This document shows positions 2,783 through 58,058 of a stretch of 64,000 bases of DNA, in pieces. Each line of letters begins with the position of its first letter. The stretch's first letter is position 1. The stretch is from Candidatus Heimdallarchaeum endolithica (GTDB taxonomy: Archaea; Asgardarchaeota; Heimdallarchaeia; Heimdallarchaeales; Heimdallarchaeaceae). The position numbers were made by a program, and so were the translations under genes. The notes under the pieces were generated by a model. It saw only the letters and a list, made by a program, of their open reading frames with translations, did no database searches and was not told the DNA's origin. The stretch is from assembly GCA_021513715.1 (NCBI GenBank), contig CP084167.1, positions 658,117-722,116 on the forward strand. The letters run 5' to 3'.

Positions 2783-2783
2783 C

Positions 2784-18587: not shown

Positions 18588-18603
18588 ACAGAGGTAGGTA
18601 TTA

Positions 18604-21537
18604 ATGGCAACAAGTGGCTCCTCTTCAATTTCGGAACAACTTGATACAAATAAAAGTCTCTTAAAGCAACTGATAGAGGTGTCAAAGGAAATTGAGAAAG
18701 AAAAACAATCAAATTCTGTTGAAATTTTTTTAAAGACAATAATCAAAGATATCAAAAGAGTAGAAAATGAAACATTAGAGATTATTCCTGTTTCACATTA
18801 CTCTCTTTCTTCTGCTGTTCATGTATGGCAGAGATTATCAGAAAAAAAACCTAAGGTTATATTTCTTGAAGCACCAGAGGATTTTGAGAGAGAATTGGAA
18901 AATATAAAATATTGCACCCCTCCTGTAGCTTTTCAAGGAATATTAGTCAAAACAGAAGAAATTGACCATGTGTTCTTGCCTATTAACTCTTATACAATCG
19001 TTTCAGAAGCTTCTGCAGAATATCAAGCAATAAAATATGCTTTTGAAAACCCAGGAACAGAGCTAATTTTTGTTGATGCTCCTTGTACTAATCGTGTAAA
19101 ATGGGAGCAAAAATATCTTGCAACTAAAAAATATAAAGCAAAAAAAGAAGAGATTAATGCTAATAACTACAATTTCATTATTGGAAACACGATTCCAACA
19201 AAAAAGGAATTTCTAATCACACTTCTTGAAAAAACAAATTTCGATGATTATAGTCTTTGGTGGGAACAAGTAGCTGAAAATGCACTTTTAGATCTCTCTT
19301 ATGATAATTATAGATATGTAATGGTTTTATTAGGGAGTGTTTTTCGTCGCTCTGGTTCTGATGATAAATTAGAAATAATTAGTTCTCTAAGAGATAAATT
19401 CATGTGGAATAAAATTAAAAGTGTGATAAATTCAAAAAAACTTCAACCAGAAGACTGTGTTTTTATTTGTGGAGCAGCACATGCAATTGCAACAGTTGAA
19501 GAATGGGGAATGAAAGGAATAAAGAAAAAAAATAGACGCAGTAGAAAATCAGAATGGAAATACGGAATAAATCAAGTCGACTACAATTTAATAGATCAAA
19601 TTGCTAATAAAACTCCTGGTTCCACTTCTGAAATACATGCGAAGTGGGATGCAATAAAGAGATCTGTTTACAAAAATAAAAAAGAAGAAATAACTTTAGA
19701 ACTAGACAAGTATAATCAAGCTGTTCATGATAAAATACTCACTTGGGCTTCTGAAACAGTGAAAAAAGCGAGAAAAGCAGGTTATATTACTAGCCCTGCA
19801 GACAGTATTGCAATTGTAGAGCTTACATACGCTCTTAAAGAAATTAGAAATAGAGCACGAATCACACCACGAGAATTTATTGATGCGGCAGTTACAAGTA
19901 TTCAAAAAAACGATTTATATCTTCAACCAGTAGAGGAACTAATTGATGAATACATATTTCCTAATGTTTTAGGAAAAGTAGGGTATAAAGCCTTGCCAAG
20001 CTTGGCAAAAGATGTTTTTGATCGACTTTCTATCTTAAAAATTTCAAGAGATTCAAACAGAGTTCAAAGAGTGCTATTAGATTTAGATAAACAACCAGAA
20101 CTCAAACCTGTTTCTGATTTACTCTGGATGTTAAAACACATGAATATTAATGTTGTTCCAATTGCTGGAAAAAAAACCCTTGGAAAACATATTAAACAAG
20201 AATCATGGGATTTATACATCTACAAAAACAAAAACCCTCTGATTTGGCTTTCATTAGAAGGAATATCAGTAGAAGAAGTTTTTCGTTCCCGAATAACGAA
20301 AAAAGTGAAAAAAGATCCTTCAATTTTATCTATTTTAGAAGCTATAAAATCGGTACTTACTTATTTGAATTATAAGGATATATTATTATTCACTCTCTCT
20401 AATTTACTATTTTCTAATCTTGAAGGTATAATATTTGAAGATCAAAAAAAACTATATTCTTTAACTTTAGAGCTTTTAAACTACTTAAGAACTCTCAAAG
20501 AAGGTATCCCAAAATGGTTTATCTATTACATTGTTAGTTCTTACAGACAATATTGTCAAGAGCTAGTTAAAGCAGCAGCAGATAACTCAATCTCTGCAGA
20601 ACAGTTTTCCATGATTTTCTCTTTCATTTTCAAAATCGAAGGAATAGCCCTAACAGAAGGAGCAAGTAGAGAAGAATTAGAAATAGCAATCAAACTAACT
20701 CTTGACTTGGATGAAATTCCTGAAAATAAGAAAATTATAGCTTTAGCTGCTAATAGTTTGCTTAAGCAAGAAAATGAAAAAGAACTAAGACAAATTATAT
20801 CAAAGGTCTTCTGGAATCCACAAATTATTCAATCAGCTTCAGAAATTGTTTTAGCTTTAGTATATTCTTCAAATTTTGCTCCCAACCTAATATTTCTTTT
20901 TATAGAATTCTTAGACCAATGTTTTCGAAGATTGAGCGATAATCTTATCTCTCAGTGGTTACCACTATTGACTTCACAAATGAAAAAGTTAGATCAAAAC
21001 TATGTTATACAAATCGCTCAAATAGTCAAGAGGTATTATAATCGAGATCTCAAACAAATTGAAGTAATGAATGTTTGGTACGATGAAAGTTTATATGCCA
21101 CGATAACAGACAGAAGAGAAAGAGAAACAGAGATAGCAATTGAAACTGAAAATATTATTATATCTACTAACTTTATTCATAATTTTATTTATGCTTTTCC
21201 AGAAACACTTAACCAACTTTGCTTACTATTAGGTTTTGAACAAATAAAACAATTTCCACTATTTAGTCAATCAACTACTTCAATTAGTTCAATTGAAAAA
21301 ACAGTAGAAAAAGAGATTCCACTTATTACAAGAATTCTAATTAAGAATCCTGCAACAATAATCAATATTAAAAAAATTTTTGAGATAAAAAAAGAGTTCA
21401 CTATCACTAAACAAGATTTGGAAAAATCTAATAAAATTGACAAAGAAAAAGAAGATCTAAAGACATGTGACTCTCCATTTTCTATTTTAAAATCTCATTC
21501 TCAAACCCTTGAGAAAACTAGTGAATTATTAAGGTGA
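18604..21537 (+). CDS. Large uncharacterised protein, possibly DUF5682-like (operon gene 2)
   Basis: 977 aa; N-terminal IPVSHYS...VIFLEAPED...PPVAF resembles, from memory, the N-terminal motif of DUF5682-type proteins; otherwise alpha-helical with no catalytic motif recognised. Confidence 0.5.
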   Translation: MATSGSSSISEQLDTNKSLLKQLIEVSKEIEKEKQSNSVEIFLKTIIKDIKRVENETLEIIPVSHYSLSSAVHVWQRLSEKKPKVIFLEAPEDFERELENIKYCTPPVAFQGILVKTEEIDHVFLPINSYTIVSEASAEYQAIKYAFENPGTELIFVDAPCTNRVKWEQKYLATKKYKAKKEEINANNYNFIIGNTIPTKKEFLITLLEKTNFDDYSLWWEQVAENALLDLSYDNYRYVMVLLGSVFRRSGSDDKLEIISSLRDKFMWNKIKSVINSKKLQPEDCVFICGAAHAIATVEEWGMKGIKKKNRRSRKSEWKYGINQVDYNLIDQIANKTPGSTSEIHAKWDAIKRSVYKNKKEEITLELDKYNQAVHDKILTWASETVKKARKAGYITSPADSIAIVELTYALKEIRNRARITPREFIDAAVTSIQKNDLYLQPVEELIDEYIFPNVLGKVGYKALPSLAKDVFDRLSILKISRDSNRVQRVLLDLDKQPELKPVSDLLWMLKHMNINVVPIAGKKTLGKHIKQESWDLYIYKNKNPLIWLSLEGISVEEVFRSRITKKVKKDPSILSILEAIKSVLTYLNYKDILLFTLSNLLFSNLEGIIFEDQKKLYSLTLELLNYLRTLKEGIPKWFIYYIVSSYRQYCQELVKAAADNSISAEQFSMIFSFIFKIEGIALTEGASREELEIAIKLTLDLDEIPENKKIIALAANSLLKQENEKELRQIISKVFWNPQIIQSASEIVLALVYSSNFAPNLIFLFIEFLDQCFRRLSDNLISQWLPLLTSQMKKLDQNYVIQIAQIVKRYYNRDLKQIEVMNVWYDESLYATITDRRERETEIAIETENIIISTNFIHNFIYAFPETLNQLCLLLGFEQIKQFPLFSQSTTSISSIEKTVEKEIPLITRILIKNPATIINIKKIFEIKKEFTITKQDLEKSNKIDKEKEDLKTCDSPFSILKSHSQTLEKTSELLR

Positions 21538-21544
21538 AAAAATA

Positions 21545-22024
21545 ATGGGTAATAAAATAATAGAAGAAAAAGAAGAAAAAAACAATTTTTATCTTTCTAT
21601 TATCCCTAGAAATACACCTCCTAGAAGAAATTATAAAATCAAAAAAGTCCCTTTTATGGAGTTTAGAGATAACAAAATTCAAGGAGTAGTTTCTAGCGGA
21701 AGTAGTTTTGAACGAGTATATGTTTGTGTTATAAATCTAGAAGACAAAACATTTACATGCCACACAAACAACAATCGTCCTTGTGGAGGACTAAGAGAAA
21801 GAATGTGTAGTCACATCAAAGCTCTACTTGATGTAGCACTACGCAATCAGGAAACTGAATTACTGTTTATGCAATACGATTTTGACTTTTTTGACCCTGA
21901 TGGAAGTAGACGCTATTCTGATGTTTTTACTCGCTTTCAAGAACAATTACATTTTCTAGAAATTAAAATGGATGAGAAAGAAAATTTTCCTGAAATGAAT
22001 TGGTTTGTAGGTGATTTATCATGA
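21545..22024 (+). CDS. SWIM-like zinc-finger protein (operon gene 3)
   Basis: FTCHTNNNRPCGGLRERMCSHIKALL fits the SWIM pattern with the usual second Cys replaced by His. Confidence 0.5.
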   Translation: MGNKIIEEKEEKNNFYLSIIPRNTPPRRNYKIKKVPFMEFRDNKIQGVVSSGSSFERVYVCVINLEDKTFTCHTNNNRPCGGLRERMCSHIKALLDVALRNQETELLFMQYDFDFFDPDGSRRYSDVFTRFQEQLHFLEIKMDEKENFPEMNWFVGDLS

Positions 22025-23331
22025 ACCAAATAATTATTGAAGAAAAGACTCTTGATGAAATAAGAAAAGTTCAATCTGTTTTGCAAGAACTTAGCGAGAT
22101 CTTCATGATAGGGCTAGGTAAACTTACCAAGAAAGAAAAAGAAATTTTCGATAAAGTTAATGAAGGTTTTTCGCATACTCCTCTCTCTGAAGTTCTTGCA
22201 AATAGTTTTTCCAAACTCAAAAACTCTGATTTTTCTGAAGATGTTATTACTCCCCTTGTTTATGCTATCTTATCTCTTCAAGGAGCAATATATGATGCTT
22301 TATTCACTACTGTAGGTGAAGAAAGAACATTTACAGAAATAGGTAAAGTAGAATATTACGATTTTTCACAAGAAAAAGCTGTTCTTATGGAAAATATAAG
22401 AAAATGGTTAATTAGCTTACTCATTAGCGGATTTAAAGATTTACAACTAGATAATATAGATTCGTTTTCCTCTGTGCTTGAAACAATTTCCTCATATCCT
22501 GAATTAACCCGATTAAATGTCTTGTTGCGAGGATTAATCTGCGATTTTAAATTTACACAGAATAAAAAAGAACTAAAAAAATATGCTATTCGATTTCTGG
22601 ATCTTTGGACAAAAAGTTATTTTCTCACTTTAATGGAAATAAAAACTAAAAATAAACGAATTGAAAATGCTAAATTCTATCCCATAGCCTATCAACACTT
22701 CATCCACGAACAATTCTTTGTAGGAATAATTAGAGGAATTGTACAAACAAAGGATAACAGTCTATTTGTTAATTTAGAATTTCCTAGTTTTGTATCACCT
22801 CTTATTCCATCAAAAGAGTTTTACAGCTTAATCTATAAAAACAATGAAGAACTTTTTACTGCTCTTAAGCAATCCAAGGTTGTGATTATTGAAGAAGCTT
22901 CTCTAAGTCCTCAAGGAGTAATGCACATAGAAAAATTTACAGTTTCTGATAAATCATTCAATATTAAAGAAGTTTATGAGAATACAAATAATTTCAAAGA
23001 TATCTATTTAATAAAAAAACCTTCTTTGGATAGACATCATGTACATTACTTTCTACCATTTTTTATCGAAGAAAAACTGCCAAAATTGAGTACCACAGAG
23101 GACACTAAAATTAAATTTAGAAACAATAAATTCAAAAAAAATTCAAAACATTTTAAAAAACCTAAATTTGTTGAACTTCGTTACGATAACGATTTCTATT
23201 GGAATATAATTCAATTTTATTTACCAAAGTTTCCAGAAGAAATTTTGTATTTTGAAACAAAAAATATCAAAATTAAAACAGAAACTTATGAGCTTATGAA
23301 AGAAAAAAGTAGTAAAATACTTAGGAAGTGA
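22021..23331 (+). CDS. Uncharacterised protein (operon gene 4)
   Basis: 436 aa; 4-bp overlap with the SWIM gene; no motif recognised. Confidence 0.5.
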   Translation: MNQIIIEEKTLDEIRKVQSVLQELSEIFMIGLGKLTKKEKEIFDKVNEGFSHTPLSEVLANSFSKLKNSDFSEDVITPLVYAILSLQGAIYDALFTTVGEERTFTEIGKVEYYDFSQEKAVLMENIRKWLISLLISGFKDLQLDNIDSFSSVLETISSYPELTRLNVLLRGLICDFKFTQNKKELKKYAIRFLDLWTKSYFLTLMEIKTKNKRIENAKFYPIAYQHFIHEQFFVGIIRGIVQTKDNSLFVNLEFPSFVSPLIPSKEFYSLIYKNNEELFTALKQSKVVIIEEASLSPQGVMHIEKFTVSDKSFNIKEVYENTNNFKDIYLIKKPSLDRHHVHYFLPFFIEEKLPKLSTTEDTKIKFRNNKFKKNSKHFKKPKFVELRYDNDFYWNIIQFYLPKFPEEILYFETKNIKIKTETYELMKEKSSKILRK

Positions 23332-23335
23332 ATAA

Positions 23336-24946
23336 ATGTCTTTAAAGAGCCATAATATAAAAGCTGCAACATATTGGAATACACTATTAAGTTCGATTAA
23401 CAGCAAAAATAAATTAGAAAATATTATCCCTAAACTTTGCAAAGAAAACGGGCTTCCTCAAAACTTTCTAGAACAAAACTTTGATTTTAAAGATCTTACT
23501 CTTCCTGAAGAAAAACAATCAGAAGAAATTCAACAATTTCAAAAGCTTCTTGAAGAAAAACGAATAGATTTCAAGAATTCTTCTCTAAATCAAATTATTA
23601 AGCAAATTATGACGATGAGAGAAGAACAAAATCCAGAGGATAAAAAAACAAGTTCTTCCTCTTCCAACTTTACGAATCTTCAACGTCTTGTTTTTTCTAA
23701 AGTATTTCAAGAAATTTTTCAACCTGTACAAAAATCTAAAGTAACAGCAAATGATTTTTCAGAATGGAAAGAAAATAAACAACTTTGTCAAGAAGCATTC
23801 GAAGAAATTACTCAAATAGAAGTAGAATTAGAAAAACAAAAACATTCAAAGAAAGATTTGGAAACAACGATTGATGATATTTCACTTTCTGAAAAAGAAA
23901 AAGAAAAATTAACTGATGAATCACCTATTCCTCTAATTGAAGGAGAAAAAGCCAAAGTTTCATCTAAAAAAGGAAAAGGAAAACAAAAGTCTTTAGAGAA
24001 ATCACCTATTGGAGGAACAGAAAAAGGGCAAGGTTTTTTTGTCGATAGAAGAGAGTTGGAAGAAGTTTTTGATCTTATTGAGAATGAAATGATTTCAAAG
24101 ATGAAAATCATTGAATTATTACAAGACGATGAATTGGCAAAAAAAGTCAGTCCTTCAATAGGTATAGTTGAACAACTTCTTCATTTAAAAAAGAGTTTAC
24201 CTGCTTCTGCCATGACAAATGCTAAAATGATTATAAAAAAATATGTACGAGAAGTATCAGATCTATTTAAAACCAGATTTGATAAATCGATCAAAAAAGT
24301 ACCGAATCCTGATATTGTGCCAAAGAAAGTTTTTAGAAATCTAGATCTTCAAAGAACAATCTGGAAGAATTTGCCAAATTATGACATACAAGAAAGAAAA
24401 TTGTACGTAGACCGACTCTATTATCATCGTGCAGGAAAAAAAGAATTACCCTCTAAAGTAGTGATAGTAGTTGACCAAAGCGGTTCAATGGTAGAAGCAA
24501 TGGTACAAACTGTCATTCTTGCATCAATATTTGCTCAGTTACCTAAAGTAAATGTAGATTTGCTAGCTTTTGACACAAAAGTAATTGATCTAACAAAATA
24601 TGTTAATGATCCCTTAGAAGCTTTATTAAAAACTAATCTAGGAGGAGGAACATCAATAACTTATGCTTTAAAGGAAGCACAAAAGAAAATACAAAATCCA
24701 TCAAAAACAGCTCTAGTATTGATCACTGATTATTATGAAGGAGGAAACGCATATGAAAAACTGTTTAATACAATTAAAGATATCAAAGATAATGGAACGA
24801 AATTCATTTCTATTGCTTCTATGACAAGAAAAGGTTATGTCGACGTCAATAGTAATTTTGTACATGCGTTAAAGAAAGAAGGAATAGAGACAATTATGGG
24901 AAATTTCGACAGATTAATAGAGTTGTTAAGAAAATATCTGTTGTAA
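23336..24946 (+). CDS. vWA-domain protein with complete MIDAS motif (operon gene 5)
   Basis: C-terminal vWA fold with DQSGS ... GGGTS ... ITDYYEG; acidic/lysine-rich coiled N-terminal half. Confidence 0.7.
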   Translation: MSLKSHNIKAATYWNTLLSSINSKNKLENIIPKLCKENGLPQNFLEQNFDFKDLTLPEEKQSEEIQQFQKLLEEKRIDFKNSSLNQIIKQIMTMREEQNPEDKKTSSSSSNFTNLQRLVFSKVFQEIFQPVQKSKVTANDFSEWKENKQLCQEAFEEITQIEVELEKQKHSKKDLETTIDDISLSEKEKEKLTDESPIPLIEGEKAKVSSKKGKGKQKSLEKSPIGGTEKGQGFFVDRRELEEVFDLIENEMISKMKIIELLQDDELAKKVSPSIGIVEQLLHLKKSLPASAMTNAKMIIKKYVREVSDLFKTRFDKSIKKVPNPDIVPKKVFRNLDLQRTIWKNLPNYDIQERKLYVDRLYYHRAGKKELPSKVVIVVDQSGSMVEAMVQTVILASIFAQLPKVNVDLLAFDTKVIDLTKYVNDPLEALLKTNLGGGTSITYALKEAQKKIQNPSKTALVLITDYYEGGNAYEKLFNTIKDIKDNGTKFISIASMTRKGYVDVNSNFVHALKKEGIETIMGNFDRLIELLRKYLL

Positions 24947-32802: not shown

Positions 32803-32949
32803 TTTTTTATACTCCTATTTTTTTCTTCTTTTCCGTATCATACACCCGTATTTAAAATTTGTGCAAATTAAAGTTAATAAGTTTAACAATTTTTTTAATA
32901 AAATAATTTATGTTAAATAGTTCAACGATGAAGAAAAATGAGTTTAGGG

Positions 32950-33235
32950 CATACAAAAAGAAAAAATTCATTTCATTTTTTTTAACTCTCTTCCAAATAA
33001 AAATACAGTTAAGATTGTAGCCCCCAAAGCAAGTAAAAACAAATAAATTAAAGTTATTTCGAATGGAGAATTATCCAGAAATTAGCCAAAAGACCAAGGA
33101 AAGACAGCTGCTAATGTGTTGGGTATTGCAAACAAGAAACCAAGTGCTGTTGACCTATTTCCTGATGCACTTCTTCTCTTACATATCTTGTACTTGCTAC
33201 ACTACTAAAGTGTAAAAAGGCTATGAAAGCAAAAT
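32950..33235 (-). pseudogene. C-terminal fragment of an MFS-transporter paralog
   Basis: Minus-strand RSTALGFLFAIPNTLAAVFPWSFG* matches the MFS protein at 35968-37221 (KSRSTALGFLFAIPNTLAAIFPWSFGY); in-frame TAA and an upstream frameshift. Confidence 0.5.
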
Positions 33236-33237
33236 AA

Positions 33238-33660
33238 AATATTATTATTCCACATGTTCGAGAAGGTAAAGGAAAAGGAAAAAGTACTCGTAAGTTTCGC
33301 AGGAAACTTCATCAGTGGAACTTTTCTCTTGTCCTTGCTCTTCTCCGTCGGACACTAATATTAAGAGGTTTTGACCCTCATCGAATATTAACAATAGAAG
33401 AAAGAGGGACATCTTCTCACTGTGCTCGTTACGGGAAGAAAGTTATCCGTCCAGTAAGAGGTTTAGTTCATTGTTCTTCTTGCAATTACACTTTCCACTC
33501 TGACCTCACAGGGGCAATAAATATCGCTCGTAAGTTCCTTGGGGCTCTTTTCCGTCCTCGAGGAACAACTATCACTGATTACCTCACTGGTCAAAGGTTC
33601 AGTTCTACCCATTTCACTGTTTGCCGAGGGCTCAGCCATTGGTTGCAGTCCCAGTAGATG
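33238..33660 (+). pseudogene. 5'-truncated TnpB-like nuclease gene (zinc finger plus RuvC-III)
   Basis: No start codon; translation ...IRPVRGLVHCSSCNYTFHSDLTGAINIARKFLGALFRPRGTTITDYLTGQRF... aligns with the C-terminal ~120 aa of the intact gene at 51095-52609. Confidence 0.65.
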
Positions 33661-33800: not shown

Positions 33801-34017
33801 TCAACTCTTCATAGCATTGTATGACTTGGTTGAGTTCAAGAGATTAAACTTTTACTTGTTTTTTCTCTTGCAAGACAGAGTGCGAAAAACTTTACGTAAA
33901 AAAGTAAATCATGACAAAATACTGCATCTTCTGGTGTTTTTGATCCACATTTTGTACAATATTTCATAAACATTCACCCATATTACTACCATAGTAGTAA
34001 TACTATCTTATATAAAT

Positions 34018-34572
34018 CTATTCAAATCTTTTAGAAGTGAAAGTGAACACATGTTGAATAAAGGATTTGGGGGTGAACCCTCTCCTAAAGTAAAGAATTG
34101 AAAGAAATACTAAACTTAAGAAACCTCCAATTTCATTATAATAGACATAAGGTTGTAAAAGAAACTGAAAGTATGTTTGTGTTTTTGGTTGAAAAGTATA
34201 GTTTACAAAGGGGAAAAACCAAGGAATAAATCCTGCTGTATCTAAAATGATATGCATTATCCAACCCAGAATCAATGCAGAATAAACAGTGGGTTTTTTC
34301 CTGAAAACAACTATGAATAAAATGAACATCAGTATAGCAAATGGAATTGAATGACCAATGTATCTTCCATAACCTGTTATAGGCTCTGAAATGAGTTTAT
34401 CAATAATATCTGGTCCAAGAGCTCCAATTATTAGGGGAATAAAAGCAAAATGAACTATCCCCCAACTATCTGTAGGTTCTAAATTTTTCTTTTTTAGAAG
34501 TAACCAATAATAAAGATGAGCTATAATTTCTGCTGTTAATAATGTGTATCCAATGTGGGCAATTAAGAACAT
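34018..34572 (-). CDS. Membrane-bound metal-dependent hydrolase-like protein (DUF457/YdjM-like)
   Basis: GALGPDIIDK and conserved His residues across TM helices. Confidence 0.45.
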   Translation of the reverse strand: MFLIAHIGYTLLTAEIIAHLYYWLLLKKKNLEPTDSWGIVHFAFIPLIIGALGPDIIDKLISEPITGYGRYIGHSIPFAILMFILFIVVFRKKPTVYSALILGWIMHIILDTAGFIPWFFPFVNYTFQPKTQTYFQFLLQPYVYYNEIGGFLSLVFLSILYFRRGFTPKSFIQHVFTFTSKRFE

Positions 34573-34604
34573 TCAAATCTTTTCTCCGAGTTGAGTTATA
34601 GTTT

Positions 34605-35171
34605 CTATTTTTTTGCTTTATGATGTTTATAAATATTTTTAGTTAATGCATCAAGTAATTGAGTTAACCCTTTACCTGAAATTGCTGAGACTTCAAAGAA
34701 TTCATTGTTAATGTTCTCTCTAGCTGATGTACGGTTTAATCTAAGACAAAAAGCTTGTGCGTCTATAGGATTTAATGTTCTATTTCTTACATTAGGGTTA
34801 TTTCGAAGATCAATTTTATTTCCTACTAGAACTATTGGAATCTTCCCTTTTCTATTGTAATTGATCAATTGCTCTAACCAGAATGTTACTCTTCTAAATG
34901 TCTCTGCTTTTGTAATATCAAAAACTATAAACGCTCCATCAGCTCCTAAATACCATTTAGTTCTTTGAGGAGAGGATAATAGTTCTCTTGCAGGTAAATC
35001 ATAAAGGTCAAAAGCTACTTCTTCTCCTTGTATTGTGCGAAAAACTTTTACAATCTCCGCTTTTAGAGAAGGAACCTTCTCTTTATTTTTTTCATTTTGA
35101 ACTATTTTCTTAAATAAAGTAGTTTTACCTACGCTGTTATCACCTATAAAAAGAATCTTAAATGTGAGCAT
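34605..35171 (-). CDS. Divergent Ras-superfamily small GTPase
   Basis: G1 GDNSVGKTT, G4 GNKIDL, G5 SAISG; G3 is YDLPARE, lacking the Gly and Gln of DxxGQ. Confidence 0.7.
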   Translation of the reverse strand: MLTFKILFIGDNSVGKTTLFKKIVQNEKNKEKVPSLKAEIVKVFRTIQGEEVAFDLYDLPARELLSSPQRTKWYLGADGAFIVFDITKAETFRRVTFWLEQLINYNRKGKIPIVLVGNKIDLRNNPNVRNRTLNPIDAQAFCLRLNRTSARENINNEFFEVSAISGKGLTQLLDALTKNIYKHHKAKK

Positions 35172-35257
35172 TGTTTTTCCTCAGAAACATTCATTTATTA
35201 GTATATACTTAAAAGAATCACTTAAAGTATAAAAAATTAATGTATTAGCTACTTTAC

Positions 35258-35827
35258 TTACTTTTGATTTGATTTATCTCTGATACTTCTTCCAAGAATT
35301 TCAAAGGCTCTATCGATATTTAATCCAGTCTTTGCGCTTGTTTCTAAACAATAATTAATTACACCATACCTCTGTGTACGAAGATTTAGTTCAGTAACAT
35401 ACTTTTGAACTTGTTTGAACTTAACACTCTTTCTATCTCTTAAATCACTTTTATTTGCAAGAACGACAACAGGTACCACTCCTGAACCGTTGAATTTGTA
35501 AAGTTCATTTAACCACATTGGTAGATTTTGAAAAGAAGAAGGACGAGTTATATCAAAGACAAGTAAGGCACCTTGTGCTCCTTTATAAAAACGTGCTCTA
35601 ACTTGCTCAAACATCTGTTGTCCTGCAAGATCCCAAATTTGAAATTTCCACTTCTCATTAGGAATGATTTCTTTGTCTATTGTTGAAAAATCTGCCCCAA
35701 GTGTCATAAGATGACTGGTATTAAATCCGTATCCCATATATTGCATTCTAATAGAAGTTTTTCCTACTGCACCATCACCAATAAGAACGATTTTGAAAAT
35801 AAACAGTTTTTCTGTCATGAAGTTCAA
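35258..35827 (-). CDS. Ras/Rab-like small GTPase
   Basis: G1 GDGAVGKTS, switch I TLGADF, G3 WDLAGQQ, G4 NKSD, G5 ETSAK. Confidence 0.8.
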   Translation of the reverse strand: MNFMTEKLFIFKIVLIGDGAVGKTSIRMQYMGYGFNTSHLMTLGADFSTIDKEIIPNEKWKFQIWDLAGQQMFEQVRARFYKGAQGALLVFDITRPSSFQNLPMWLNELYKFNGSGVVPVVVLANKSDLRDRKSVKFKQVQKYVTELNLRTQRYGVINYCLETSAKTGLNIDRAFEILGRSIRDKSNQK

Positions 35828-35967
35828 CCAATATCTCTGTTAATCTTTTTTTCCTAATATATTCTCCTTATTCCATGTTTAAATTTTTTTATCTAGGAAA
35901 CTTCGTTCAAAAAAAAGTTTAAAAATAACATTTAAAAATAAACATCAAAAAGAGCAGAAGAGAAAGA

Positions 35968-37221
35968 ATGTCGAGGATACATAGTAAAAATCCTATTGCT
36001 TCATTAAGTATTTTGATTTTTGGTCATTTTCTCAACCATTTCTATGCTTATGTGTTTGGTGCAGCAATGTTTGTGATAAGAAATGATATAGTTATGAACA
36101 ATAAACAAATTGGATTATTAGCAACTATTCAAATGGTAGTTTTTGCACTTTGCACTTTTATTGTAGGAGTGTTGGGAGATAAATGGTTAGCAAGTAAAAA
36201 ACTGTTTGTACCCGTAGGTATTTTCTTTATGGCACTACATCTGATAGTTGCATCAATAGCTCAAAGATATATCGTTCTTGCAATTGCAGCAGCGATTGTA
36301 GGTTTTGGTGCTTCTTTTTATCATCCTGTAGCCTATGCAGCAATAGCAGATCTCTATGAAGATAAAAAAGGATTGACTATGGCTCTAAATGCTGCTTTAG
36401 GAATGATTGGAACAGCTCTTACACCAGGAATAATTGCTTCATTTAGCGAGTGGATTGGATGGAGAAAATTCTTTCTATACTTTGGTCTGGGCGCAATAGT
36501 TTTAACTTTTCTAATGTTTATAGGATTTAATAGACTAATAGACTATAGCTTTGAAAAAGAAGAATTAGAACAAATAGAAAAAAGAAGAAATTCAATGACA
36601 ATGAAAGAAAGAATAATCTATTGGCTAAAATTTGAATTTCTAGCTATTCTAACTTTAGCTGTAATAACATGCTTGGCCTATTCTTCGCTTAGATCTGGCT
36701 TATACAAAATAGTGACACAGTTTTTAAGTATTATATTTGTAGATTACTATGATTATAACATATTAAATGCTGGTTGGTTATCATCAGTAATGCTGATAAT
36801 AGGTGGATTAACTGCCATTTTTGGAGGAATATTGAGCGATAAGAAAAATACTCCGTTAACTATGTTTATTTCTTTATTTGGTTCTACAATATCGATTTTG
36901 CTTATTTTTCTATTAGGCAAAAATACAGGAACTTGGGGAATAATAATTCTTTATTTTTCATTTATAGCTTTCTTACACTTCAGTAGTGCTGCAAGTACAA
37001 AATTTGTAACAGAGGAAGTACATCAAAAAAGTAGATCTACAGCTCTCGGTTTCTTGTTTGCGATTCCTAATACACTTGCAGCTATATTTCCTTGGTCATT
37101 TGGATACTTTATGGATAACTCACCGTTTGATATAACACTAATCTATCTGTTCTTCATTGCCTTAGTTGCAACAATGTTAACAATTATATTATTTGCGCGA
37201 GAGCTAAAAAAGAAAAAATAA
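35968..37221 (+). CDS. MFS transporter
   Basis: 12 predicted TM helices in two 6-helix halves. Confidence 0.7.
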   Translation: MSRIHSKNPIASLSILIFGHFLNHFYAYVFGAAMFVIRNDIVMNNKQIGLLATIQMVVFALCTFIVGVLGDKWLASKKLFVPVGIFFMALHLIVASIAQRYIVLAIAAAIVGFGASFYHPVAYAAIADLYEDKKGLTMALNAALGMIGTALTPGIIASFSEWIGWRKFFLYFGLGAIVLTFLMFIGFNRLIDYSFEKEELEQIEKRRNSMTMKERIIYWLKFEFLAILTLAVITCLAYSSLRSGLYKIVTQFLSIIFVDYYDYNILNAGWLSSVMLIIGGLTAIFGGILSDKKNTPLTMFISLFGSTISILLIFLLGKNTGTWGIIILYFSFIAFLHFSSAASTKFVTEEVHQKSRSTALGFLFAIPNTLAAIFPWSFGYFMDNSPFDITLIYLFFIALVATMLTIILFARELKKKK

Positions 37222-37355
37222 TGTGAATTTCGAATTACTTTTATTTTTTTTTATAATAATAATATTCAACCAAGCTGTCTTATTTCTATGTTGAATAAAA
37301 CAAAAAAGACTAATAAAAAAGAATATTAGTAAAAAAAGAAGAAAAATTAAGCTAA

Positions 37356-40300
37356 CTATAATTTTCCTTCATTTGAGCGCTCAAAAGATGAGAATTCATT
37401 AAGAAGGCGGTCAATAGCTTCTGTGATTTCTTCTTTACTACCTGATGCAAAAGTGAAAATAACCATTTCTCCATCTATCACAAGGAGATCTTCAGGAAGG
37501 GTAACTAACCATCTATACAATGCCCCACGATTAGTGAATTCTAATGCATCCACTAAATCTTGAATAGACACTTTTTTAGCTCTTTTTGCTAGTCCTCCTA
37601 AAGTATTTCTTCTTTTAATAGACATTTGCCATTCAGCAAAAGAATCAAATCCTTCATTTAACGCTTGTTGATATGTAGGATAATCTGGAAAACCATTTTT
37701 ACTTGCTTTGCTTGCAGAAGTAAAATCAGGAGCTTTCATTTTCTTAACAAAAATTAACCCATTTTTATTTTCAGCGCCTAGTTTTTGAGCTTCTTCATAT
37801 TCTTCATAATTAGAAAAACCACCATCTTTTATCTTTTTAGCAATATCATAACTAGGAGCCCCTAACTTCTTCGTTAGTTCAAATCTTTCTTTATTTTCAG
37901 CGCCTAGTTTTTGAGCTTCTTCATATTCTTCATAATTAGAAAAACCACCATCTTTTATCTTTTTAGCAATATCATAACTAGGAGCATTAGTTTGTAAAAT
38001 TTCTAAATTCATTTTTCTTTTATTTAAACGGTAGCGAATGAAAAATACCAAGCCAACTATAAATAATAAAAATAATGATCCGATAGGAATAATGTAAAAT
38101 TTTAAAGGGTTAGAACTTGATTTTAAGGGATTTGTATTAAATATTAACTCTATTTTATCGGAAAATCCATCGTTGTCTGTGTCTGTGTCTGTAGGGTCAG
38201 TATAATAAGTATTTACTTCTTCTTCATCAGTTAACCCATCGTTGTCTGTGTCTGTGTCTGTAGGGTCAGTATAATAAGTATATTCTTCTATGTTAGTTAG
38301 CCCATCATTATCATCATCTTCGTTTGCGTTACTTGTTAATGGGTCTAAATTGTAAAGTACTTCCCACCCATCTGGCATTCCATCATTGTCTGTGTCTGTG
38401 TCTGTAGGGTCAGTATAATAAGTATATTCTTCTATGTTAGTTAGCCCATCATTATCATCATCTTCGTTTGCGTTACTTGTTAATGGGTCTAAATTATAAA
38501 GTACTTCCCATCCATCTGGCATTCCATCATTGTCTGTGTCTGTGTCTGTAGGGTCAGTATAATAAGTATATTCTTCTATGTTAGTTAGCCCATCATTATC
38601 ATCATCTTCGTTTGCGTTACTTGTTAATGGGTCTAAATTATAAAGTACTTCCCATCCATCTGGCATTCCATCATTGTCTGTGTCTGTGTCTGTAGGGTCA
38701 GTATAATAAGTATATTCTTCTATGTTAGTTAGCCCATCATTATCATCATCTTCGTTTGCGTTACTTGTTAATGGGTCTAAATTGTAAAGTACTTCCCATC
38801 CATCTGGCATTCCATCATTGTCTGTGTCTGTGTCTGTAGGGTCAGTATAATAAGTATATTCTTCTATGTTAGTTAGCCCATCATTATCATCATCTTCGTT
38901 TGCGTTACTTGTTAATGGGTCTAAATTGTAAAGTACTTCCCATCCATCTGACATTCCATCTTCATCAGTATCAGCTTTTTTGGGATTTGTACCTAAGTAA
39001 TCTTCCAAAAAGGAGGATAAACTATCATTGTCAGGGTCTACATCTGCTAAATTATTTGTTCTGGAAAAGTTTCCTGTTCCACTTAAACCCTGCCAAAAAA
39101 CATTAATACCTGAAGGTTCAAATTCTAAAGCATAAATACTATAGTCAAAACTGCCTATTAATAAATCTAGTTTTCCATCCCCATTTATATCTGCGATAGC
39201 AGGAGAAGAGTCGATATCTCCACCTGTTGTGTATGACCATATTACTGTCCCATTTTGCCCATTAAGAACATAAATCCTGTCATCTTTACTTCCTATTATT
39301 ACATCTAGTTTTCTATCCCCATTTATATCTGCGATAGCAGGAGAAGAGTCGATATCTCCACCTGTTGTGTATGACCATATTACTGTCCCATTTTGCCCAT
39401 TAAGAACATAAATCCTGTCATCTCTACTTCCTATTATTACATCTAGTTTTCTATCTCCATTTATATCTGCGATAGCAGGTGAAGAGTAAATAACTCCACC
39501 TGTTGTGTATGACCATATTACTGTCCCATTTTCCCCATTAAGAGCATAGACTAAGCTATCATAACTTCCTATTATTACATCTAGTTTTCCATCCCCATTT
39601 ATATCTGCGATAGCAGGAGAAGCGCAGATATCATATCCTGTTATATATGACCATATTACTGTCCCATTTTCCCCATTAAGAACATAAATCCTGTCATCTC
39701 TACTTCCTATTATTACATCTAGTTTTCCATCCCCATTTATATCTGCGATAGCAGGAGAAGAGTCGATATCTCCACCTGTTGTGTATGACCATATTACTGT
39801 CCCATTTTGCCCATTAAGAACATAAATCCTGTCATCTTTACTTCCTATTATTACATCTAGTTTTCCATCCCCATTTATATCTGCGATAGCAGGAGAAGAG
39901 TCGATATCATATCCTGTTGTGTATGACCATATTACTGTCCCATTTTCCCCATTAAGAACATAAATCCTGTCATCTCTACTTCCTATTATTACATCTAGTT
40001 TTCCATCCCCATTTATATCTGCGATAGCAGGAGAAGAGTGAATAGCAGCACCTGTTGTGTATGACCATTCTAATAAACCAAATTTTCCTATAACATATAT
40101 TGTATTATCAACGCTACCTACAATTACTTCTGTAACTCCATCATTGTCTATATCCGCTGCAGAACATGAAGAAACAATATAATTGTTAGTTTTGTAGTAC
40201 CAAAGTCGATTAGAAGTCAATGAATTTACCGAACTAGAGAGAGATATCTGCTGTTCTGATAATGGTAAGGAATAACTAAAACTTGGTAAATAAAATGAAT

Positions 40301-40481
40301 CTGTGGACTGTTTAACTGAGGTCAAATTATCTTGTGAATTTGTTGTTGTAATATCTTGATAATTTGATAACACTAATAATACAATAAGCGTTGTAGATAA
40401 AATTATTCTCTTTTTTATAATAAAATTGAATAGCTCATCAAAAATATGACGCCATATTTCATTTTTTTTTGAATTAATCAT
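37356..40481 (-). CDS. Large surface-anchored repeat protein: beta-propeller (FG-GAP/PQQ-like) blades plus thrombospondin-type-3-like calcium-binding repeats
   Basis: N-terminal signal/anchor; 8 copies of YTTGGDIDSSPAIADINGDGKLDVIIGS..DDRIYVLNGENGTVIWS; 5 copies of DTDTDNDGMPDGWEVLYNLDPLTSNANEDDDNDGLTNIEEYTYYTDPT; TM helix; cytoplasmic tail with a duplicated 32-aa unit. Confidence 0.75.
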   Translation of the reverse strand: MINSKKNEIWRHIFDELFNFIIKKRIILSTTLIVLLVLSNYQDITTTNSQDNLTSVKQSTDSFYLPSFSYSLPLSEQQISLSSSVNSLTSNRLWYYKTNNYIVSSCSAADIDNDGVTEVIVGSVDNTIYVIGKFGLLEWSYTTGAAIHSSPAIADINGDGKLDVIIGSRDDRIYVLNGENGTVIWSYTTGYDIDSSPAIADINGDGKLDVIIGSKDDRIYVLNGQNGTVIWSYTTGGDIDSSPAIADINGDGKLDVIIGSRDDRIYVLNGENGTVIWSYITGYDICASPAIADINGDGKLDVIIGSYDSLVYALNGENGTVIWSYTTGGVIYSSPAIADINGDRKLDVIIGSRDDRIYVLNGQNGTVIWSYTTGGDIDSSPAIADINGDRKLDVIIGSKDDRIYVLNGQNGTVIWSYTTGGDIDSSPAIADINGDGKLDLLIGSFDYSIYALEFEPSGINVFWQGLSGTGNFSRTNNLADVDPDNDSLSSFLEDYLGTNPKKADTDEDGMSDGWEVLYNLDPLTSNANEDDDNDGLTNIEEYTYYTDPTDTDTDNDGMPDGWEVLYNLDPLTSNANEDDDNDGLTNIEEYTYYTDPTDTDTDNDGMPDGWEVLYNLDPLTSNANEDDDNDGLTNIEEYTYYTDPTDTDTDNDGMPDGWEVLYNLDPLTSNANEDDDNDGLTNIEEYTYYTDPTDTDTDNDGMPDGWEVLYNLDPLTSNANEDDDNDGLTNIEEYTYYTDPTDTDTDNDGLTDEEEVNTYYTDPTDTDTDNDGFSDKIELIFNTNPLKSSSNPLKFYIIPIGSLFLLFIVGLVFFIRYRLNKRKMNLEILQTNAPSYDIAKKIKDGGFSNYEEYEEAQKLGAENKERFELTKKLGAPSYDIAKKIKDGGFSNYEEYEEAQKLGAENKNGLIFVKKMKAPDFTSASKASKNGFPDYPTYQQALNEGFDSFAEWQMSIKRRNTLGGLAKRAKKVSIQDLVDALEFTNRGALYRWLVTLPEDLLVIDGEMVIFTFASGSKEEITEAIDRLLNEFSSFERSNEGKL
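38150..38960 (-). repeat. Intragenic tandem repeat, 144-bp unit, about 5.5 near-identical copies
   Basis: Unit recurs at 38371, 38515, 38659, 38803, 38947 (period exactly 144 bp); encodes the 48-aa Asp-rich repeat. Confidence 0.85.
39100..40080 (-). repeat. Intragenic tandem repeat, 138-bp unit, 7-8 near-identical copies
   Basis: ATCTGCGATAGCAGG recurs at 39189, 39327, 39465, 39603, 39741, 39879, 40017 (period exactly 138 bp); encodes the 46-aa propeller blade. Confidence 0.85.
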
Positions 40482-41286: not shown

Positions 41287-41892
41287 GTGACACTCCCTAA
41301 TATCGTGTATGTATTCTTTATTTTTGCAAATGTGTTTCAGGTTGTTATTGGTCTGATAACTCCACAAACTAAAAATTTAGTTTATTACGTAAAAAAGTAT
41401 CTCATGGACATAGTAGGTCCTACAGCTGAAATTAATGAATTAAGTGTTATTACAAAAACAGGTGATATTAGTGTTAATTCACACACTACTGAAAATGTTA
41501 CAATTAACAACATTATGCTTATTTCAACTACAGGTATTATTCATTTTAGTTTAAGTGATGAAGGAATAAATTATATAAGCAATGCTCTTTCAACCACTAC
41601 TACAGGAAAGATAGAGTTCGATTTTGGAAATAATTGCACTTACAACGGAACAGAAATTAACCTTTCAACAACAACAGGAAAAATAGTTGTTTATTGTACA
41701 AATATGAATTACTTAGTCAATGTATCGTGGTTAATTTCTACAACTACTGGTTCTGTTTATGCAAATATTACTCAAGATTTTATTATTGAAAATCAATTAC
41801 AAGTTTCGTTTTTCATTACAGTAAATACTGGTTCAATAGAAGTATTAACTACTTTTCATGAAGAGCTTTTTTGTACATTTTTGTCAAATTAA
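41287..41892 (+). CDS. Hypothetical protein with STTTGKI repeats (DUF4097/adhesin-like)
   Basis: Three to four repeats of STTTG(K/S)I in a beta-rich sequence; GTG start, so the true start is uncertain. Confidence 0.35.
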   Translation: MTLPNIVYVFFIFANVFQVVIGLITPQTKNLVYYVKKYLMDIVGPTAEINELSVITKTGDISVNSHTTENVTINNIMLISTTGIIHFSLSDEGINYISNALSTTTTGKIEFDFGNNCTYNGTEINLSTTTGKIVVYCTNMNYLVNVSWLISTTTGSVYANITQDFIIENQLQVSFFITVNTGSIEVLTTFHEELFCTFLSN

Positions 41893-43688: not shown

Positions 43689-44627
43689 ATGAATAAGACC
43701 GAACGTAACCTGGAGAAACTAAGAAAAATTGTAGTTAAAAAAGCTTTGGAAGGAGAGAAGATAAAAGAGATAGCTCACAAGTATATGGTGAGTAGGAAGT
43801 TTGTGTATAAGTGGTTGAAGAGGTTCAGAGAGAACCCTGAAGGAGAATGGTGGAAAGATAGATCCTCCAGACCAAAAACTATACACAGGAAAGTGGATGA
43901 GGAGTTAAAAGAGAGGATAAGGGAGTTAAGAATAAAACAAGGAATGAATGTGGAGAAGATAGCTTATTTGTTGAAGAGAGAAGGAAAAGCACTCTCTCAG
44001 ACGACAGTGACGAAAGTAATAAAAGAGTTAGGTCTTCCTTTATGGGTCAATAGAAAAAAGAGGAAGAGACCTCGATACAAGAGTTTTGAACGTCAAAAAC
44101 CTAACGAACTCTGGCAAATAGATGTGAAAGGACCATTCTGGGTAGAAGAACAGGGACAACATCTCCATCTCATAACCTTGATAGACGACCACTCACGATT
44201 CTGTCTGGGAGCTAAATTCCACCCTTTTGCACCAAAAAAAGAGCAGATAATAAATCTACTAGAGGAAGCAATAAAAGAGTACGGTTACCCCGAGTCTATC
44301 CTCACGGACAATGGAGCACTCTTCTCTTCCGTTAGAGGAGGAACAAGTACCTTCTCCCGTTGGTGTCAAACAGAAGGAATAAAACACATCAGAGCTAGAG
44401 TTTTTCACCCCGAAACATGTGGAAAAGTAGAAAGACTACATGGGACAATCATCCGTGAGATGGAAAGATTAGGTCTAAAATACTGCAACCCCGACCTCTC
44501 CTACTACCGCTCTTACTACAATTTTAGTCGTCCTCACCAATCTCTTAACTTCCTCACCCCAGGAGAAAGATTTATGAATCACCCCTATGTTTCTCTAGTA
44601 CCCAAAAGTGTAACCCAAGTCTATTGA
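43689..44627 (+). CDS. IS481-family-like transposase (HTH plus rve integrase core, DDE)
   Basis: N-terminal HTH; WQIDVKGPF...LIDDHSR...LTDNGALF...HPETCGKVER; GC content higher than flanking DNA. Confidence 0.75.
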   Translation: MNKTERNLEKLRKIVVKKALEGEKIKEIAHKYMVSRKFVYKWLKRFRENPEGEWWKDRSSRPKTIHRKVDEELKERIRELRIKQGMNVEKIAYLLKREGKALSQTTVTKVIKELGLPLWVNRKKRKRPRYKSFERQKPNELWQIDVKGPFWVEEQGQHLHLITLIDDHSRFCLGAKFHPFAPKKEQIINLLEEAIKEYGYPESILTDNGALFSSVRGGTSTFSRWCQTEGIKHIRARVFHPETCGKVERLHGTIIREMERLGLKYCNPDLSYYRSYYNFSRPHQSLNFLTPGERFMNHPYVSLVPKSVTQVY

Positions 44628-48460: not shown

Positions 48461-49464
48461 AAGCATGTCCAAAAATTAATTTTTATTAATGTGGGGGTTT
48501 ATGTCGGAAGTATGAATTTCTTTCAGATCATAGACCCCCACAAAGCAAGAGAATTCATAATCATTAATGAACCTTTCCTTAAGAAACTGGTGAAAGAGGA
48601 ACCGAGAGAAAGCAAGAGAGGGAGAAAGAGAATAGCAGAAAGATGGGTGATACTGGCTTTAGCAATCATTGCTAGAATAGAAGGGATAGCTTGGAGGAAG
48701 TTAGAGGAAAAGTTGTCTTTATGCGATTTTTTGATAGAAGAGGGGTGGATGAAGAAGATTCCTTCTAAATCTACTTTTCATGCAGTGTGGAGAGCGACAG
48801 AAAGTAAAATCTTAGAGCAGTGGATAATAGATTTAGGTAGGGAAATAGTGAGGAAAAAAGGCTTGAAAGCTATGGCAGTGGATAGTTCAGGGTTTAAAAT
48901 CCGTCAAGCTTCTGTTTGGCGTTTTCTCAAATGGTCAAGAGGGACACTAAAGAAAACCTCTAAACTTTTCTGGAAGATACACCTTATAGTTGGTTTACCC
49001 TCTCGAGCTATAGTCTCTCTCGCTCATTCTGCTAGTAACACTCACGATAGTAAAGTCTTCGGTTTACTCTGGCAGAAACTTCCTTCTGCACTCTTGAGAC
49101 CTTTCTTGCGATTTTATGGAGACTGTGCCTACTGGACAGAAAATATCGTTGGACTTCTTAGCCAACATTCCTTTTTCCCTGTTATTCCCCCAAAAAGTAA
49201 TGCTCGTTATCCCTCTCCTCCTCCCCTCGGACCAATAGTTCAAGCTCATCGTCTCTACCCTGGTCTGTATCGTCGTAATCATCATCCCGAGTATCGTAGT
49301 AGTATTGAACACGTCTTTGGTCTCCTTAAACTCTCTCTTCCCCCAATCCTTGATCGTTTACCCTCCACCATCCTCTCTACCTTGTACAGTTCTCTTCTCT
49401 GTTACAACTACCTTTTACTCCTTCGGACCGTTTAGTTGGTGAAAAAGAATTTTTGGACATGCTT
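48461..49464 (+). mobile_element. IS4/IS5-family-like insertion sequence (1004 bp) with perfect 17-bp terminal inverted repeats
   Basis: Left IR AAGCATGTCCAAAAATT at 48461-48477; right IR is its exact reverse complement at 49448-49464; flanked by direct repeat TAGTAT at 48455-48460 and 49465-49470. Confidence 0.8.
48491..49435 (+). CDS. DDE transposase (IS4/IS5-like)
   Basis: AVDSSGF, YGDCAY and IEHVFG...K motifs; the ATG at 48512 may be the true start. Confidence 0.75.
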   Translation: MGVYVGSMNFFQIIDPHKAREFIIINEPFLKKLVKEEPRESKRGRKRIAERWVILALAIIARIEGIAWRKLEEKLSLCDFLIEEGWMKKIPSKSTFHAVWRATESKILEQWIIDLGREIVRKKGLKAMAVDSSGFKIRQASVWRFLKWSRGTLKKTSKLFWKIHLIVGLPSRAIVSLAHSASNTHDSKVFGLLWQKLPSALLRPFLRFYGDCAYWTENIVGLLSQHSFFPVIPPKSNARYPSPPPLGPIVQAHRLYPGLYRRNHHPEYRSSIEHVFGLLKLSLPPILDRLPSTILSTLYSSLLCYNYLLLLRTV

Positions 49465-57953: not shown

Positions 57954-58058
57954 AAAATTATTCAGGAAAAATGAATAATAAAGGTTGTTATTTGAATTAA
58001 ATAAAGTACACAATATTACAATAAATTTAAATTTACCCAAGAGTTTGCCAAACAGAAA

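Follow-up and report, generated by a model that had tools for sequence, protein, structure and literature searches.

The Asgard archaea encode dozens of Ras-, Rab- and Arf-like small GTPases that are central to ideas on the origin of eukaryotic membrane trafficking and whose partners are almost all unknown. Lipid anchors are missing from these GTPases, and pairing them with their partners is difficult because their genes, as documented for strain MK-D1, generally do not lie in operons with regulators or other partner genes (Tran et al. 2024, PMC10933270). Here we describe a cassette of three genes in a stretch of 64,000 nucleotides from Candidatus Heimdallarchaeum endolithica (contig CP084167.1, positions 658,117 to 722,116), hereafter called the window. 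It is one of the few cases in which the arrangement of genes suggests which membrane protein may be the partner of Asgard small GTPases. The cassette encodes a canonical Rab-like GTPase (G1), a divergent Rab-like G protein with degenerate switch regions (G2) and a small integral membrane protein of the YdjM/DUF457 family (Y, or YdjM). It is conserved across, and probably specific to, Heimdallarchaeaceae-type Asgard archaea, and G2 is its hub. Our best reading, to which we give a probability of about 40%, is that the three proteins would constitute one membrane-associated G-protein module in which G2 is non-cycling and coupled to YdjM and G1 is the true switch.

Several described systems come close to one or the other member of this cassette. 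Among eukaryotic small GTPases, Rnd, RhoH and Arl13B are atypical or constitutively loaded. The kappaB-Ras protein, which lacks the catalytic glutamine, is constantly GTP-loaded and works as a structural subunit within a regulator that acts on a different GTPase (PMC12314375). Hydrolysis without this residue is documented as well: kappaB-Ras, Rap and Rheb hydrolyse GTP without Gln61, according to PMC12314375 and PMC2265111, and LRRK2 does so with an arginine (R1398) at the Gln61 position that is proposed to act as a gamma-phosphate sensor (PMC13345514). In the archaeal domain, the reference set is formed by the Asgard Rab-likes, comprising the Thorarchaeota Rab 7ezb and the MK-D1 proteins, and a fixed pairing with YdjM such as that of G2 is not described there (PMC10933270). 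Our literature searches found no work that brings together Asgard archaea and pseudoGTPases, or Asgard Rab-like proteins and the catalytic glutamine, and no description of a YdjM link to Asgard GTPases. The data presented below place G2 as an atypical subfamily of the Asgard Rab-likes, whose expansion is known, and give it a conserved putative membrane partner that is new.

The initial annotation had described a GTPase, a second GTPase and a DUF457/YdjM gene on the minus strand at 34018-35827, and this trio is present with all the motifs that were quoted for it. The open reading frame (ORF) listing places the three genes consecutively in different frames, with the following layout (lengths in nucleotides, nt, and amino acids, aa):

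35258-35818, minus strand: G1, Rab-like small GTPase, ATG start, 186 aa, Pfam Ras 1.1e-40
35172-35257, minus strand: G1-G2 spacer, 86 nt
34605-35171, minus strand: G2, divergent Rab-like G protein, 188 aa, Pfam Ras 4e-26
34573-34604, minus strand: G2-Y spacer, 32 nt
34018-34572, minus strand: Y, YdjM/DUF457 integral membrane protein, 184 aa, PF04307

A TTG at 35827 would extend G1 to 189 aa; gene callers and the orthologue of Candidatus Heimdallarchaeum aukensis use the ATG at 35818. Direct reading of the G1-G2 spacer reveals an oligo-T run, ttaattttttat, an A/T-rich TATA-like stretch, ttttaagtatata, about 40 nt ahead of the G2 ATG, and a GAGG 8 nt upstream of the same codon. The T-run and the TATA-like stretch may correspond to an internal terminator and a putative promoter, in which case G2 and Y would possibly form their own transcription unit. 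The G2-Y spacer contains a GGAG 14 nt ahead of the Y ATG and is too short to carry its own promoter, so that co-transcription of G2 and Y is likely. The ratios of nonsynonymous to synonymous substitutions (dN/dS) against H. aukensis amount to 0.030 for G1, 0.047 for G2 and 0.051 for Y, in the same range as those of the neighbouring H+-pyrophosphatase and major facilitator superfamily (MFS) genes. Judged from these ratios, all three are real genes under strong purifying selection and not chance ORFs; the values of G2 and Y indicate that G2 is not a decaying duplicate and that Y is not decaying either.

By its sequence, G1 is an ordinary Asgard Rab-like GTPase, a typical member of the set defined by 7ezb and the MK-D1 proteins, with a single G domain and the full series of G-domain motifs G1-G5 (PMC10933270). 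All motifs looked for as marks of the Ras superfamily are present: GDGAVGKT within the P-loop GDGAVGKTS, the threonine of switch I (TLGADF), DLAGQ within switch II (WDLAGQ, nt 35618-35632), NKSD and ETSAK. Besides the Pfam Ras match there is a weak secondary match to Gtr1_RagA (1.4e-7), and NCBIfam recognizes only the generic small_GTP domain in G1 and G2 and nothing in Y. The top solved relatives of G1 are Rab8A (2.4e-31) and the Thorarchaeota Rab 7ezb (1.7e-30), with Rab43, Rab2, Rab10, Rab7 and Rab1 also found. Homologues are numerous (1627 at E<=1e-20) and mostly labelled as Rab family or GTP-binding proteins of Heimdallarchaeia. The orthologues situated in the cassette are 72-96% identical, and the residues F28, T35 and DxAGQ of Ras are retained in 8/8 of them.

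The Rab criteria of Pereira-Leal and Seabra reportedly consist of closest similarity to Rabs and of the RabF-type motifs IGxDF, KLQIW, YYRGA and LVYDIT. G1 has its best matches in the Protein Data Bank (PDB) with Rab8, Rab43 and Rab2 and carries LGADF, KFQIW, FYKGA and LVFDIT; G2 retains only IVFDIT and WYLGA. Since the C-terminus of G1, RSIRDKSNQK, is devoid of cysteine, G1 departs from true Rabs in the matter of prenylation. No C-terminal cysteine prenylation motif (CC, CxC or CaaX) occurs in G1, in G2 or in their cassette orthologues, and lipidation sites in the form of a C-terminal Cys or an N-terminal Gly are missing from both window proteins. In lacking the prenylation cysteine, G1 and G2 resemble the other Asgard Rab-likes.

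The assignment of both GTPases to the Ras superfamily with Rab-like G domains, proposed initially from motifs, is borne out by Pfam, by the PDB relatives and, in the case of G2, by Foldseek. The AlphaFold2 model of G2 has a predicted local distance difference test score (pLDDT) of 90.4, its sole uncertain region being switch II (pLDDT 66), and its top Foldseek matches are Rab10, Rab32, Rab2 and Rab11. Ras is also its best Pfam family, Roc (1e-17), Arf and others being weaker secondary matches and Gtr1_RagA giving none. The motifs of G2 read GDNSVGKTT, PSLKAEI, YDLPARE, NKID and VSAISG, with the P-loop, NKID and SA intact. In the window protein, a Lys occupies the position of Ras F28 and a Ser that of T35, and switch II, DLPARE (nt 34983-35000), corresponds to A59P, G60A and Q61R; neither the canonical switch I threonine nor a switch II DxxGQ is thus found. 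The family also has motifs of its own, RTLNPID and RLNRT. The window protein has a basic C-terminus, KHHKAKK, and closes as IYKHHKAKK. Alignment of the ten G2 lineages available with sequence against H-Ras gave the following picture, in Ras numbering:

P-loop GxxxxGK[ST], NKxD and G5 Ser (N118, K119, D121, S162): retained in 10/10 lineages
F28, the guanine-stacking aromatic: K or P in 10/10
G12: non-Gly (N, T, P, V, Y) in 9/10
T35: S in six, A in three (L003, L004 and L016), T in one
A59: Pro in 10/10
G60: lost in 8/10
Q61: R in eight, K in one (L016), G in one (L020); Gln in 0/10

The loss of the catalytic glutamine, noticed at first in the single window protein, is therefore a conserved trait of the family and not a local mutation. 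Replacement of catalytic or switch residues in a preserved G-domain fold, by which pseudoGTPases and non-cycling atypical GTPases are recognized, is seen in G2 at F28, G12, G60 and Q61, and loss of F28, G60 and Q61 together with Pro59 sets G2 apart from the other Asgard Rab-likes, whose fold it shares. When positions 12, 59, 60 and 61 of Ras are altered, hydrolysis or the conformational switch is blocked, and without F28 nucleotides exchange faster. Changes such as the loss of G60 and a bulky residue at position 12 block both the switch and catalysis assisted by a GTPase-activating protein (GAP). For a natural protein, the same logic is documented in kappaB-Ras (PMC12314375). The missing glutamine behind the earlier expectation that G2 probably cannot hydrolyse GTP in the canonical way is confirmed; Gln61 loss taken alone is no proof, as kappaB-Ras, Rap and Rheb illustrate. 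A stronger argument comes from the combined loss of F28, G12, G60 and Q61 with the invariant Pro59. This combination suggests that G2 binds guanine nucleotide without canonical cycling and may be locked in a nucleotide-bound state.

Of the systems introduced above, kappaB-Ras is similar to G2 in its intact G domain, its preserved nucleotide-binding motifs, its replaced glutamine and the absence of a membrane-targeting motif (PMC12314375). G2 is not orthologous to kappaB-Ras, Rnd, RhoH or Arl13B and belongs to a separate archaeal clade. It differs from the kappaB-Ras class in having Arg or Lys and not Leu at position 61, an invariant Pro59 and a predicted membrane hydrolase instead of a GAP as neighbour.

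The residues found at positions 35 and 61 also open the way to another interpretation, in which G2 is a working GTPase of non-canonical type. The Arg or Lys in place of Gln61 would then sense or stabilize the gamma-phosphate in cis, or a partner would supply the catalytic residue in trans in the style of RapGAP and Rap, and G2 would cycle and signal to or through YdjM. In 9/10 lineages the Gln61 position holds Arg or Lys, and in 7/10 the T35 position holds Ser or Thr. Both LRRK2, with Arg in place of Gln61 (PMC13345514), and the Gln-less Rap, Rheb and kappaB-Ras (PMC12314375; PMC2265111) set precedents. The likeness to the LRRK2 Roc domain extends to the Glu that follows the Arg (DLPARE or DIPGRE in G2, DFAGRE with R1398 in LRRK2; PMC13345514) and to the secondary Pfam match. 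G2 has, however, neither a COR domain nor a Roco architecture, Ras and Rab models outscore Roc, and Gly60 is lost in most G2 proteins. The Gly at position 61 in L020, the Ala at position 35 in L003, L004 and L016, and the bulky residues at position 12 argue in the same direction, and we consider a cycling G2 somewhat unlikely. Arg62 was also considered as an invariant catalytic residue of G2; the Lys of L016 and the Gly of L020 weaken this proposal.

The residues invariant specifically in G2 are R93, N104 and Y105 in helix 3, LNPID at 133-137, and R144 and R147 in helix 4. They cluster away from the switches, which suggests a conserved partner-binding surface. The family itself is narrowly distributed. 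A profile built from five orthologues was searched exhaustively, without word index, against 1.84 billion representatives; it retrieved just two proteins specific to the family, at 337 and 225 bits, and the single-domain matches that come next, at about 100 bits, are generic Rab-likes. Contig scans for the G2 pattern returned only close relatives, namely H. aukensis and four short near-identical contigs; a match in Bryobacterales was spurious (31% over 59 residues). A distant, Rab-like G2 homologue in a Logan assembly (P0008) has a canonical DTAGE and ends in GWCC, which resembles the double-cysteine prenylation motif of Rabs.

The two GTPases had been presented as a tandem pair of paralogs. 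Their adjacency is confirmed; a recent tandem duplication is not, as they share about 30% identity and fall into separate old clades. In a neighbour-joining tree, the G2 proteins, on a long branch, and the G1 proteins each form a monophyletic group, with no sister relationship between the two. Derivation of G2 from G1 by tandem duplication is thus unsupported, and the separate clades suggest that the pair is old and predates the divergence of the sampled lineages. Both G1 and G2 carry, ahead of beta-6, an 'LN' insertion that Ras does not have.

The third gene was correctly recognized as a DUF457/YdjM protein: it matches PF04307 (YdjM, formerly DUF457) with 44.1 bits against a cutoff of 29. DUF4579 of the CRISPR effector Cap1 shares with DUF457 only the start of its name and has no bearing on this family. 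Its AlphaFold2 model (pLDDT 87.6) displays five long hydrophobic helices predicted to span the membrane. Three of its residues, H74, H107 and D111, never vary among 36 YdjM homologues, and three more, H6, D55 and D58, are conserved in at least 90%. The Pfam family Zn_dep_PLPC is matched by 7/36 of these proteins (best 2.2e-6) and DUF4184 by 19/36; a profile search of the PDB sequences with YdjM matched no solved structure. A possible relative of YdjM is the zinc-dependent phospholipase C/P1 nuclease superfamily, with the fold of Bacillus cereus PLC (1ah7) and clostridial alpha-toxin (1olp). Counts of Lys plus Arg average 11.6 for loops 1 and 3 and the C-terminal tail, versus 2.2 for the N-terminus and loops 2 and 4, and the loops assigned to the cytoplasm (KKK, RKK) as well as the tail are basic in the window protein. 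Following the positive-inside rule, Y is predicted to have its N-terminus outside and its C-terminus inside, which would place the His/Asp cluster on the outer face. In overall appearance, YdjM would be a relative of zinc phospholipase C with five helices and an outward orientation, its topology being predicted and its enzymatic activity putative. In L003, two tandem YdjM paralogues follow G2 (2690-3253 and 3344-3889), with 53% and 69% identity to the window protein.

The association of these genes was followed through the genomic contexts of the ten G2 lineages. YdjM lies directly downstream of G2 on the same strand in nine of them (the window, L007, L003, L004, L006, L014/L015/L009, L016/17, L018 and L020), and a G1-type gene lies upstream of G2 in 9/10. 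The full G1, G2, YdjM order is encountered in the window, L007, L003, L004, L006, L016/17, L018 and L020, and likewise on a further contig, P0170, recovered through gene calls only, without DNA. The spacers between G2 and YdjM measure 32, 32, 120, 95, 23, 18, 12, -29 (an overlap) and 82 nt, and thus amount to at most 32 nt or overlap in 6/9 lineages; those between G1 and G2 are longer (48-206 nt). A distant YdjM (37% identity, L022) has no GTPase neighbour, which indicates that the GTPase link is specific to this YdjM subfamily.

In the lineage represented by L014, L015 and L009, an Arf-like GTPase replaces G1, and G2 and YdjM are retained 18 nt apart. This replacement protein (L014 2424-3335, also in L015, with its C-terminus in L009 1-105) belongs to the Arf family of GTPases (303 aa, Pfam Arf 1e-32) and carries a C-terminal extension of about 120 aa that has no Pfam match. 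Further upstream in L014 there is a second GTPase, Arf/SRPRB-like and in divergent orientation, together with a PAS protein.

Such an arrangement could reflect nothing more than inherited synteny in a slowly rearranging region, in which case no functional module would exist and G2 would be one more diverged Asgard Rab-like. An H+-pyrophosphatase, an MFS transporter, a class-V aminotransferase and a P-type ATPase are also often found nearby, all the lineages seem, from their source names, to belong to one family-level clade, and the GTPase genes of MK-D1 generally stand outside operons with regulators (PMC10933270). The immediate flanks, on the other hand, change between lineages (NosD, PAS, GH114, a second YdjM, H+-pyrophosphatase) through insertions, inversion and gene replacement while the adjacency and common strand of G2 and YdjM hold. 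In the window, the block formed by the MFS gene, G1, G2 and Y is inverted relative to H. aukensis, yet intact. Adjacency and strand persist down to 43-49% amino acid identity, with synonymous sites saturated, the spacers shrink to 12 nt or to the 29-nt overlap, and G2 has its own conserved surface outside the switches. Synteny without function consequently appears improbable to us.

Linkage to G1 invites a different explanation, namely that G2 chiefly regulates G1 and that YdjM is a mere neighbour or anchor. G2 would act as a GTPase-like guanine nucleotide exchange factor, GAP or co-factor, as Arl13B does for Arl3 and kappaB-Ras in RalGAP, or would be the inactive half of a Rag-like G1:G2 heterodimer. 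A catalytic/regulatory partnership of the two GTPases, as suggested in the initial annotation, is plausible. The order of G1 and G2 is kept in 9/10 lineages, including L024 where YdjM is missing, G1 is the slowest-evolving member of the cassette, the switch II Arg of G2 could act in trans, and an operon with a pair of Rag-like GTPases is on record for MK-D1 (PMC10933270). The parallel with Rag/Gtr on Ragulator lies in two different small GTPases encoded together and in a protein rather than a lipid as plausible anchor. G1 and G2 are nevertheless single G domains of 186-188 aa without the C-terminal roadblock domain through which Rag/Gtr proteins dimerize. The initial annotation had mentioned two roadblock-domain proteins in the window; no Robl_LC7 match was obtained in Pfam scans of window ORFs of at least 100 aa, even at E<=0.1 for unannotated ORFs, and no Ragulator-like genes were detected within the window. 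The substitution of an unrelated Arf-like GTPase for G1 in L014/L015/L009, where the G2-YdjM pair is retained, and the G1-G2 spacers, which exceed those between G2 and YdjM, also speak against a role centred on G1, which we regard as unlikely.

Under our preferred reading of one membrane-associated module, G2 would bind guanine nucleotide without the canonical loaded-spring switch or Gln-dependent hydrolysis chemistry, as a G protein of the Rnd, RhoH or kappaB-Ras kind that does not cycle and probably stays loaded with nucleotide permanently. It would be co-expressed with YdjM and docked on it as a dedicated cytoplasmic partner. YdjM, as a predicted five-helix metal-dependent hydrolase related to zinc phospholipase C, would direct its His/Asp site to the cell outside and show toward the cytoplasm only short basic loops and a basic tail. 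G1, a slowly evolving canonical Rab-like GTPase, would be the real on/off switch. Because it has no lipid-anchor motif, we propose that the G2-YdjM pair, by way of putative contacts between G1 and G2, brings it to the membrane and mediates its action; G1 would then either regulate the YdjM hydrolase or use YdjM as a membrane landmark.

Several observations weigh against this module. In the L014 lineage, an Arf-like GTPase is found where G1 would be expected. In L024, G1 and G2 are followed directly by the aminotransferase, with no YdjM within 5 kb. Since the wider synteny (H+-pyrophosphatase, MFS, class-V aminotransferase and P-type ATPase) is partly conserved, inherited gene order is a possible contributor. 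The Ser or Thr at position 35 and the Arg or Lys at position 61 in most G2 lineages count here as well, since by analogy with LRRK2 R1398 the latter could serve as a gamma-phosphate sensor and G2 might still cycle (PMC13345514). Finally, an outward-facing YdjM site would leave only about 40 mostly basic cytoplasmic residues for contact with a GTPase.

A bolder extension of the module, quite unlikely in our estimate, would make the G2-YdjM pair a protein-based membrane receptor for a Rab-like switch deprived of lipid anchor. YdjM would be a zinc phosphodiesterase facing outward, and locked G2, permanently docked on its cytoplasmic loops and tail, would recruit G1-GTP, or the Arf-like GTPase in one lineage. 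The state of the GTPase might thereby be coupled across the membrane to hydrolysis of lipid headgroups or surface polymers, or the reverse, with YdjM serving the GTPases as an exchange factor or sensor that spans the membrane, following a logic similar to that of Sec12 or of G protein-coupled receptors. If true, this would represent a pre-eukaryotic solution to the membrane targeting of GTPases and provide the first defined effector of an Asgard Rab-like GTPase. The cassette constitutes a tractable triplet, in which a canonical switch stands beside a presumably locked, naturally "oncogenic-like" paralogue and one particular small membrane protein. It also places the YdjM/DUF457 family, which is uncharacterised, in a functional context open to testing.

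The Asgard affiliation, which had been suggested initially from the GTPases themselves, agrees with the genomic comparisons: the closest genome is the complete one of Candidatus Heimdallarchaeum aukensis PM71, and the homologues come from sources named Heimdallarchaeaceae or Heimdallarchaeota. In a scan with one genome per species, G2 is 95% identical at the amino acid level to its H. aukensis orthologue, and the DNA around the locus shows 84-91% nucleotide identity. These levels would fit a sister species of H. aukensis (compare PMC8813620).

The inversion mentioned above has left traces around the cassette. The regions involved in its comparison with L007 are:

32803-33257: first region, including one copy of the MFS 3' end (about 300 bp, 32960-33257)
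33910-37230: second region, including the other copy of the MFS 3' end (36930-37230)
41287-41892: third region, plus-strand ORF representing the C-terminal part of a zinc-ribbon gene

An inversion breakpoint splits this zinc-ribbon gene, the first ~19 codons of which, beginning with MKYCTKCGSKTPEDAVFC, are located at 33966->33910 on the minus strand.

Outside the cassette and its flanks, the window contains other genes worthy of mention:

1961-2362: further 4Fe-4S protein beside the hydrogenase module that follows
2405-4875, minus strand: group-4 [NiFe]-hydrogenase/complex-I-like module with 20-kDa, 30-kDa and 49-kDa/NiFeSe subunits and a ferredoxin
17433-24946, plus strand: cluster of five genes encoding a MoxR-like AAA_5 ATPase, a DUF5682 protein (977 aa), two proteins without Pfam match (159 and 436 aa) and a VWA_CoxE protein
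37356-40481, minus strand: surface-type protein of 1041 aa with seven FG-GAP/beta-propeller repeats and five near-identical bacterial TSP3-type repeats, DDDNDGLTNIEEYTYYTDPTDTDTDNDGMPDGWEVLYNLDPLTSNANE
43689-44627, 48491-49435 and 51095-52609: three mobile-element genes in 9 kb
55983-58118, minus strand: 711-aa MFS transporter fused to a C-terminal PhoU_div (DUF47) domain

In the surface-type protein, the TSP3 repeats are followed by a transmembrane segment and a repeated cytoplasmic motif, and the gene is absent from the corresponding place in H. aukensis. The mobile-element genes encode an rve integrase with helix-turn-helix domains (insertion sequence type), a DDE_Tnp_1 transposase and a 504-aa TnpB/Cas12f-like protein with a TNB domain. 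The rve element is inserted between the aminotransferase and P-type ATPase genes, which are adjacent in other lineages.

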